A DNA stretch of 64,000 bases, taken from Candidatus Uhrbacteria bacterium (GTDB taxonomy: Bacteria; Patescibacteriota; Patescibacteriia; JACPHY01). The notes beneath the pieces are model-generated. The model was not told the origin of the DNA. It saw only the letters and a program-made list of their open reading frames with translations, and made no database searches. The stretch covers positions 7,389 to 71,388 of the forward strand of contig JACPHY010000005.1 in assembly GCA_016188355.1 (NCBI GenBank). Direction: 5' to 3'. This document shows, piece by piece, positions 54,854 through 55,285 of the stretch; position 1 is the stretch's first letter, and the number at the start of each line of letters is the position of its first letter. The position numbers and the translations under genes are program-made.

Positions 54854-55285
54854 CTATCGGCCCTTCTCTGCCGCGGGCCGATTGCCCTCGACGCGCATGC
54901 CGGCACCGATCTGCATCGTCCGCCAGGCGTCGCCGGTCATGTCGACCGGGTTGCCGTCCACGTAGTACCGCGTCTTCGGATCGAGGCGGTAGTCCCGCTG
55001 CATCTGCTCGAGGATGTCGCCCAGGGGCACCGTCTGTCCTTCGGCGACCGGAATGCGGTCGGACACCCCCGGGTAGTCGAAGGTGATCGGCTGCACCGGC
55101 CGCTTCACCACCTTCCCATCATCATCGAGCATGCCGCGCTCCCGCGCCCGTGCCTGCACGGTCTCGCGAAGCAGCTCATCGTCCATGTTGCCCGCGCCGA
55201 TGATCTCGAGTCCTCGTGCGACATCGAGGAGTTCGAGATCGCCCATCTGGGCGATCTGGCCCGGCGTGAATCGAATCTTGCTCAT
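54854..55285 (-). CDS. 143-aa cysteine-free protein, candidate ubiquitin-like (beta-grasp) component
   Basis: Its ATG overlaps the E1 stop. The C-terminal half (KVVKRPVQPITF...YYVDGNPVDMTGDAWRTMQIGAGMRVEG) has a ThiS/MoaD-like beta-grasp pattern. There is no Cys and no terminal GG (the protein ends ...GAGMRVEGNRPAAEKGR). Confidence 0.5.
   Translation of the reverse strand: MSKIRFTPGQIAQMGDLELLDVARGLEIIGAGNMDDELLRETVQARARERGMLDDDGKVVKRPVQPITFDYPGVSDRIPVAEGQTVPLGDILEQMQRDYRLDPKTRYYVDGNPVDMTGDAWRTMQIGAGMRVEGNRPAAEKGR

Follow-up and report, generated by a model that had tools for sequence, protein, structure and literature searches.

The 143-amino-acid protein encoded on the minus strand at positions 54854-55285 of a 64,000-nucleotide stretch of a Candidatus Uhrbacteria genome (contig JACPHY010000005.1; the whole stretch is referred to below as the window) is probably the precursor of a ubiquitin-like protein (Ubl) modifier belonging to a four-part conjugation cassette made up of an E2-like protein, a JAB peptidase, a ThiF-type E1 and the Ubl itself. 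Five minus-strand genes run from position 60229 down to 51691 in the order giant protein A, JAB, E1, Ubl and giant protein B. The original prediction, made from the sequence of the window, had described a cysteine-free partner of the E1 that is not an E2 and lacks a terminal Gly-Gly, and had offered three explanations for that terminus: trimming by the JAB peptidase, an attachment chemistry that does not use glycine, or an adaptor role. Its description of the protein holds, and its identification as a beta-grasp Ubl and not an E2 is upheld; what it overlooked is Gly142 as the reactive glycine and the E2 within the flanking giant proteins.

The open reading frame (ORF) is judged to be a genuine gene from two lines of sequence evidence: an identical protein (P0001) is deposited as HYV74_02225, a hypothetical protein of Candidatus Uhrbacteria, and homologues stand beside E1 homologues in about 50 independent loci. 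Its translation begins MSKIRFTPGQ...MRVEGNRPAAEKGR, ends ...AAEKGR and contains no cysteine. The stop codon is TAG at 54854-54856. The ATG (55285-55283) shares bases with the TGA of the E1 gene (55284-55282), so that 55285-55282 reads ATGA on the minus strand, as the original prediction had noted. The same four-nucleotide overlap is found in two loci of the Uhrbacteria type, L004 (8507-9340 and 9337-9789) and L005 (4836-5606 and 5603-6031). A 286-amino-acid ORF in the same frame, starting from a TTG at 55714, was rejected; it runs over the E1 gene, and the homologues favour the ATG at 55285.

Relatives of the Ubl were found by several routes. A word-indexed protein search matched only the Ubl itself, an exhaustive search of representative proteins gave three relatives, which share 33-39% identity with it, two further ones came from a profile search, and a seventh member from the second cassette of L005. 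These seven Uhrbacteria-type members occur in cassettes ordered giant protein, JAB, E1, small protein, among them L004 from another Uhrbacteria genome and L005, where the cassette is present twice in tandem. The Ubl alignment is too variable for large-scale scanning, and the E1 alignment was therefore scanned against one genome per species, giving 52 loci. Among the candidate phyla radiation (CPR) these belong to Uhr-, Moran-, Vogel-, Nomura-, Kaiser-, Falkow- and Saccharibacteria and to Paceibacterota; outside it, to Planctomycetota, Verrucomicrobia, Lentisphaerae, Acidobacteria and a few others. Profiles made from the Uhrbacterial Ubl, giant N-terminus, E1 and JAB pick out one ORF each in nearly every locus, and the profile from six Ubl relatives finds a homologue adjoining the E1 homologue in about 50 of them. 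The four genes thus occur together in nearly all of these loci across many phyla, in the order E2-like (fused, 430-1040 amino acids), JAB, E1, Ubl in CPR bacteria and Ubl, E2-like (stand-alone, about 280 amino acids), JAB, E1 in the planctomycete type.

The C-terminus of the Ubl is the feature that these relatives explain best. C-terminal residues were counted over 52 non-redundant Ubls from E1-linked cassettes aligned to the profile, a set that takes in L036, whose stop-to-stop frame continues 164 residues beyond the glycine. An equivalent of Gly142 (codon 54860-54862) is present in all 52; it aligns at the column in 47, and the other five end ...KG, ...MG or ...MGG. Lys141 has an equivalent in 46 of the 52, and the family consensus reads ...F-[VI]-[KR]-x-[AS]-G-E-K-G. 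Within the seven Uhrbacteria-type Ubls the motif [ED]-K-G is invariant near the end, and what follows it is nothing, R, RR, GR, IR, GE or RPCP. Across the family, 22-23 Ubls end at the glycine, 15 carry one or two further residues, eight carry 3-14, four have tails of 29-48, and in one the glycine leads straight into an E2-like domain; tails of 0-2 residues account for about 38 of the 52. This distribution is the signature of a Ubl with a single reactive glycine that is masked in some members. Gly142 is the invariant C-terminal glycine of the family, Arg143 (codon 54857-54859) is a one-residue extension, and the absence of Gly-Gly is no anomaly in what is an ordinary C-terminus. In the structural model the end of the protein forms a flexible tail (residues 136-143, given as NRPAAEKGR; 54857-54880), with a predicted local distance difference test score (pLDDT) below 50 at residues 140-143.

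Trimming by the JAB peptidase is consequently the best of the three explanations first proposed, with one correction: the glycine it would expose is Gly142, one residue from the end, and not an internal one. The accompanying expectation that any of the three would set this protein apart from the characterised Bil and Bub Ubls fails for trimming. BilA of E. aridi has Gly97 followed by Ala98, which sterically blocks adenylation until the JAB peptidase BilC cleaves between the two (PMC10557695), and in BubAB the JAB domain of BubCD cuts after a conserved glycine (PMC11601596).

Departures from the short tail were seen among the relatives. In a planctomycete locus (L030:5876-7120) the Ubl and the E2-like domain form one ORF, joined straight after the conserved ...KG, and cleavage at that point would be needed. 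The Ubls of three Victivallales loci (L049, L051 and L052) carry a highly basic extension of about 30 residues past the ...EKG glycine, for example AARRPYTQPKSLKEIRKENVKRRNRRLTVQRSA, which is conserved between the loci.

The predicted structure agrees with a Ubl. An AlphaFold model built on a six-sequence alignment (mean pLDDT 80) suggests two domains, an N-terminal Rho_N/helix-extended-helix (HeH) domain and a C-terminal ThiS/MoaD-like beta-grasp. The latter, residues 67-135 (54881-55087), was modelled at pLDDT of about 90 with strands and helix in the order beta-beta-alpha-beta-beta; it is not all-helical, and the ThiS/MoaD-like resemblance originally proposed for the C-terminal half is confirmed by the model and by Pfam matches of relatives. 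When the model was compared with the PDB using Foldseek, the best 50 matches were all beta-grasp proteins (ubiquitin, SUMO, ThiS and MoaD), and superpositions included MoaD 6jbz_B (template modelling (TM) score 0.68, root-mean-square deviation 2.3 A), ThiS 3cwi (TM score 0.64) and MoaD 2q5w_D. The Pfam ThiS family (PF02597) is matched by the close relative P0003 at 4.7e-6 and is carried by P0005, and many distant cassette Ubls have sub-threshold matches to it. The N-terminal domain, at residues of about 6-49 (55139-55270), is a Rho_N-like, SAP-like fold with modelled helices at 8-13, 16-25 and 36-49, followed by a linker modelled with low confidence (50-66). Residues 1-45 of Thermotoga Rho (3l0o_A) are matched, at E=0.0028, by a profile built from the Uhrbacterial N-termini. 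Pfam Rho_N matches weakly in three of six members and above its cut-off in the two-domain cassette Ubls of L066 and L070 (37.6 and 37.8 bits vs 24.9). It can be speculated that this domain gives the tag an affinity for nucleic acid or the nucleoid.

The two enzymes encoded immediately upstream retain the residues that activation and trimming would call for. The E1 (55282-56100, 272 amino acids; Pfam ThiF 5.7e-16) is a minimal ThiF/MoeB-type protein with a single ThiF domain, no rhodanese domain and no conserved CxxC pairs. Its candidate catalytic residue, Cys181 in the motif EMSCEE (codon 55558-55560), is conserved in 54 of 55 homologues, as is the nucleotide-binding residue Arg61, and Asp50 is kept in 53. 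Searched against the PDB, its profile matches ThiF, Uba4 and MoeB best, and BilD, Cap2 and BubCD are not reached at E<=0.01. The JAB/JAMM metallopeptidase (56140-57279, 379 amino acids; Prok-JAB 7e-4) has a C-terminal extension of about 190 amino acids and an intact JAMM signature, E...HxHx7Sx2D, consisting of the motif HSHASMGAFHSGTD and an upstream glutamate. The catalytic motif is kept in 49-50 of 52 homologues, and L004 is the single exception. No relative was found when the JAB profile was searched against PDB sequences.

The E2 of the cassette is assigned, by transitive homology and conservation, to the N-terminal domain of both giant proteins. Giant protein A (57281-60229, 982 amino acids) and giant protein B (51691-54672, 993 amino acids), both from the L001 gene calls, are full-length paralogues (32% identity, E=3e-121). 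Each has an E2-like domain, at residues of about 1-260 in A (59450-60229) and at 53893-54672 in B, followed by about 700 further residues. The N-terminal region is conserved over about 260-300 amino acids with an invariant ...N-L-P-N...h-C-L... motif. Querying for homologues with residues 1-300 of giant protein B gave no matches, and even the protein itself was not recovered. The profile of the region, in contrast, picks up stand-alone proteins of 220-290 amino acids at other loci (E 1e-25 to 1e-31). Of five such stand-alone homologues scanned, three attain the gathering score for Prok-E2_D in Pfam (34.4, 30.9 and 28.2 bits vs 25), and PRTRC protein B is weakly matched by four. The candidate catalytic Cys180 of giant protein B (codon 54133-54135) and Asn169 are invariant in the joint alignment and conserved in 49 and 48 of 53 homologues, respectively. 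The remaining regions of the giant proteins (51691-53790 and 57281-59340) match nothing in Pfam, PHROG, PADLOC or NCBIfam and show no internal repeats when each is compared with itself by BLAST. They are about 30% identical between the paralogues, and other CPR lineages carry unrelated extensions of 200-500 amino acids in their place.

The indirectness of this E2 assignment leaves room for arrangements in which no E2 takes part. The E1 alone might conjugate the Ubl, as in archaeal SAMP/UbaA-like systems, with the giant proteins as substrates or scaffolds; SAMP systems need only an E1 and a JAMM peptidase. Alternatively, the Ubl might be a non-covalent adaptor, as the original prediction had allowed, binding nucleic acid through the HeH domain, itself a hint of a binding function, and the E1 or giant proteins through the beta-grasp. 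Both are unlikely, although a pure adaptor role keeps some small probability: Cys180 and Asn169 of the giant proteins are near-invariant across phyla, the stand-alone versions pass the Prok-E2_D threshold, and an adaptor accounts neither for a glycine in every one of the 52 Ubls nor for the roughly 23 that end exactly there.

A sulfur carrier of the ThiS/MoaD/CysO/TtuB type is less probable still. In that case the E1 would adenylate the glycine to give a thiocarboxylate for biosynthesis or tRNA thiolation, and the JAB peptidase would trim the tail (as QbsD acts on QbsE) or hydrolyse an adduct (as Mec+ acts on CysO). The nearest sequence and fold relatives of the Ubl are ThiS and MoaD, the minimal E1 has its nearest profile matches in ThiF, Uba4 and MoeB, a MOSC-domain gene lies between the two cassette copies of L005, and the tail of QbsE is likewise removed by a JAB peptidase. 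The cassette differs, however, from CysO/Mec+, QbsE/QbsD and TtuB/SAMP/Urm1 in that the Ubl ends in K-G and not the G-G of sulfur carriers, and in that an E2-like partner with a conserved cysteine is obligatory at almost all loci and in L030 forms one ORF with the Ubl. The E1 lacks a rhodanese domain, and no rhodanese, cysteine desulfurase, ThiG, MoaE, CysM or TtuA-type gene was found in the families conserved around the roughly 50 cassettes, nor any ThiG, MoaE, rhodanese, CysM or TtuA gene among the called neighbours. Unusual chemistry, through Arg143 or through Gly134 (...RVEG...) after a larger truncation, has the literal lack of a terminal Gly-Gly as its sole support and is very improbable, since Arg143 is not conserved and tails vary, Gly134 is replaced by F, V, A or I in relatives, Lys141-Gly142 is invariant in the subfamily, and a glycine present in 52 of 52 Ubls makes the non-glycine attachment originally entertained unnecessary.

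For the Ubl modifier favoured here, a sequence of chemical steps, a trimming enzyme and targets can be proposed by analogy with Bil systems. The JAB metallopeptidase of the operon would remove Arg143 and expose Gly142. The E1, presumably a homodimer as in ThiF and MoeB, would adenylate the Gly142 carboxylate, and the Ubl would be loaded onto Cys181 of the E1 as a thioester and then passed to the E2-like N-terminal domain of either giant protein, at Cys180. The long and lineage-variable C-terminal regions of the giant proteins might select the target or might themselves be modified. An isopeptide bond would be formed with a target lysine, and the JAB peptidase might also undo the conjugation.

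Several observations weigh against this proposal. The window Ubl itself has no match in Pfam, NCBIfam, PADLOC, PHROGs or PDB sequences; it does not match Pfam ThiS at E<=10, and its link to ThiS is therefore by fold and transitive homology. The Foldseek E-values are modest (best 1.9e-3). A cysteine near the position equivalent to Cys181 is also present in ThiF and MoeB, which do not conjugate proteins. The E2 assignment is transitive as well: the giant proteins have no direct Prok-E2 match in Pfam, the E2-like domain profile finds no relative among PDB sequences, and an AlphaFold model of the domain, for which the alignment consisted of the two window paralogues only, reached a pLDDT of 43.5 and is unusable. 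In L004, moreover, three catalytic residues of the JAB protein (7093-8325, Uhrbacteria) are replaced (Glu to Ser, Ser to Thr, Asp to Asn), and the Ubl nevertheless retains a two-residue tail, IR (...EKGIR). JAB trimming is therefore not universal; in L004 either a different protease trims the Ubl or no trimming is needed.

Among described bacterial systems, the cassette fits operon class 6d by its composition and can be regarded, from sequence comparison, as a distant relative of the PRTRC/6d operons and not as a Bil, Bub or cyclic-oligonucleotide-based antiphage signalling system (CBASS) locus. Class 6d comprises a Ubl with a conserved C-terminal glycine, a JAB protein with a JAB-N domain, an E1-like protein and a Prok-E2_D-type E2-like protein (Iyer, Burroughs, Aravind; PMC1779556). 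All four parts are present and conserved here, with an E1 that lacks a rhodanese domain and an E2-like protein with a conserved cysteine. The invariant histidine required downstream of the E2 cysteine in class 6d, however, is not seen past Cys180 in the alignments, the alpha-helical protein that accompanies the class has no counterpart as a fifth conserved gene in the CPR-type cassette, and the giant E2 fusions and the HeH-bearing Ubl lie outside the described class. The sole family-specific models that match are PRTRC_A for the JAB (2.6e-9), PRTRC_ThiF for the E1 (2e-7) and, for the stand-alone E2-like homologues, PRTRC_B (5e-8) together with Pfam Prok-E2_D above its cut-off. The NCBIfam scores are nevertheless far under their cut-offs (PRTRC_A, TIGR03735, 36.9 vs 101.8; PRTRC_ThiF, 30.6 vs 144.75; PRTRC_B, in stand-alone homologues only, at most 32.6 vs 131.45). 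PRTRC_C gave no match at E<=1, and Prok_Ub (PF14454) gave none at E<=10 for the window Ubl and three close relatives or at E<=1 for the other Ubls scanned. Because the cut-offs are missed widely, no ParB is found among the called genes of the window and no mobile-element context is present, the cassette is not assigned to PRTRC (TIGR03735-03741 plus ParB).

Type II Bil (BilA Ubl, BilB E2, BilC JAB, BilD E1) has the same four functions in one operon, and its Ubl-E2-JAB-E1 order is common to the planctomycete-type relatives. The universal single glycine with a short non-conserved tail is another likeness, the Gly97-Ala98 of BilA corresponding in sequence pattern to Gly142-Arg143, as is the intact JAB motif. 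Bil and Bub Ubls are also known with added N-terminal domains, but those listed are N/G-rich tails, coiled coils and DUF1508, and Rho_N/HeH is not among them (PMC11601603). The E1 encoded here has 272 amino acids and one ThiF domain, whereas BilD has about 500 amino acids with inactive and active adenylation domains, a CYS domain and a Zn site. The JAB and E2-like domains have no sequence relative in the PDB, and the E2-like domain is of the Prok-E2_D type and carries about 700 extra residues. The cassette is not classed as Bil because the E1 architecture differs and there is no sequence link to solved Bil proteins. Type I Bub systems work through serine and tyrosine oxyester intermediates and include a DUF6527 protease (PMC11601596). 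The L030 fusion of Ubl and E2 after K-G formally resembles the BubAB pre-protein; by contrast, the cassette conserves its E1 and E2 cysteines and lacks a DUF6527 protein. No literature on this Ubl cassette family in CPR bacteria or Planctomycetota was found.

Characterised bacterial Ubl precursors such as BilA likewise have a conserved glycine masked by a one-residue tail, and the chemical puzzle raised by the C-terminus dissolves. What remains of interest is a complete predicted E1-E2-JAB-Ubl set among the housekeeping genes of a CPR bacterium whose genome is very small, and its unusual architecture, in which two E2 fusions of about 1000 amino acids accompany one E1, one JAB and one Ubl bearing a Rho_N/HeH domain. 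The core cassette is widespread, occurring in CPR phyla, Planctomycetota, Verrucomicrobia, Lentisphaerae and contigs listed as viral by IMG/VR. If it conjugates proteins, it would be a fourth mechanistic family beside Bil, Bub and CBASS and would inform the question of how early bacteria came to have complete ubiquitin-like cascades. More tentatively, the cassette could represent a distinct class of bacterial Ubl conjugation with a minimal ThiF-type cysteine E1, a Prok-E2_D E2 carried on giant variable target-binding regions, a JAB peptidase and a Rho_N/HeH Ubl. In CPR bacteria, with their reduced genomes, such a class would sit on the chromosome and be passed on vertically; it would gain an AAA ATPase and a second E1 in its Planctomycetes-Verrucomicrobia-Chlamydiae (PVC) form, and might serve housekeeping or nucleoid tagging, or AAA-driven unfolding in the PVC form, and not act as a mobile antiphage module. 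The lysine before the terminal glycine means that trypsin would leave a single-glycine remnant on target lysines; the mass of this remnant equals that of carbamidomethylation, which calls for caution in proteomics.

The surroundings of the cassette are those of ordinary chromosomal genes. Gene calls were taken from contigs identical to the window. On one side lie DoxX, dihydroorotate dehydrogenase, dihydroorotase and an ABC transporter, and on the other a pseudouridine synthase, which is also present at L004. The flanks are thus housekeeping genes without a defence-island or mobile-element context, and PADLOC found nothing in the window past weak matches to the E1. A Shine-Dalgarno sequence, AGGAGG (55293-55298, minus strand), read from the sequence, lies seven nucleotides 5' of the Ubl ATG within the 3' end of the E1 gene. 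A terminator-like hairpin (54796-54819, minus strand), identified by consensus match only, lies 35 nucleotides past the Ubl stop codon, between the Ubl gene and giant protein B. Its arms, GGAGGGACTCC and GGAGTCCCTCC, form 10 pairs, seven of them G-C, and are followed by TTTTCGTTTG; a hairpin of this strength suggests that giant protein B is its own transcription unit or is expressed by read-through. Long plus-strand ORFs (e.g. 54644-56515 and 58766-61591) were rejected as antisense artefacts of high G+C. One family of such ORFs clustered solely with other antisense ORFs, and the ORF opposite the E1 recurs in 34 loci only because the E1 itself is conserved.

Further variants of the cassette were seen in other genomes. 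Genomes of Planctomycetota, Verrucomicrobia and relatives encode a classic AAA ATPase (Pfam AAA 3.9e-21) 5' of the Ubl-E2-JAB-E1 core (L013, L014, L018, L021, L022, L029-L032, L034, L036-L038, L043, L044 and L055-L057; e.g. L018:3745-5850). Farther 5', the genes often encode another ThiF protein of larger size (7.5e-25) and four conserved proteins that match nothing in Pfam, which makes an operon of about ten genes. An AAA unfoldase beside a Ubl system is suggestive. The tandem arrangement in L005 (923-12381) comprises two complete cassettes with a MOSC_N/MOSC domain gene (6171-7025) between them, and its second Ubl has 151 amino acids and ends ...EKGGE. Eight or nine contigs listed as viral by IMG/VR (L061-L067, L069 and L070; 18-572 kb, G+C 24-57%) carry a CPR-type cassette with a large E2 fusion, JAB, E1 and a Ubl whose ...KG end is followed by 0-2 further residues, and several of these Ubls have clear Rho_N domains. 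These contigs, some longer than 500 kb, could represent either very large phages or CPR genomes that were misfiled. On plasmids, the closest annotated relative of the stand-alone E2-like proteins is a 'prokaryotic E2 ligase family D protein' on a Bacillus mycoides plasmid (L060, NZ_CP036067.1, 8246-18692). None of the three small neighbours translated there resembled a Ubl; the cluster consists of E2, MPN/JAB and ThiF genes and adjoins Rad52, DnaN and a nucleotidyltransferase/HEPN pair.

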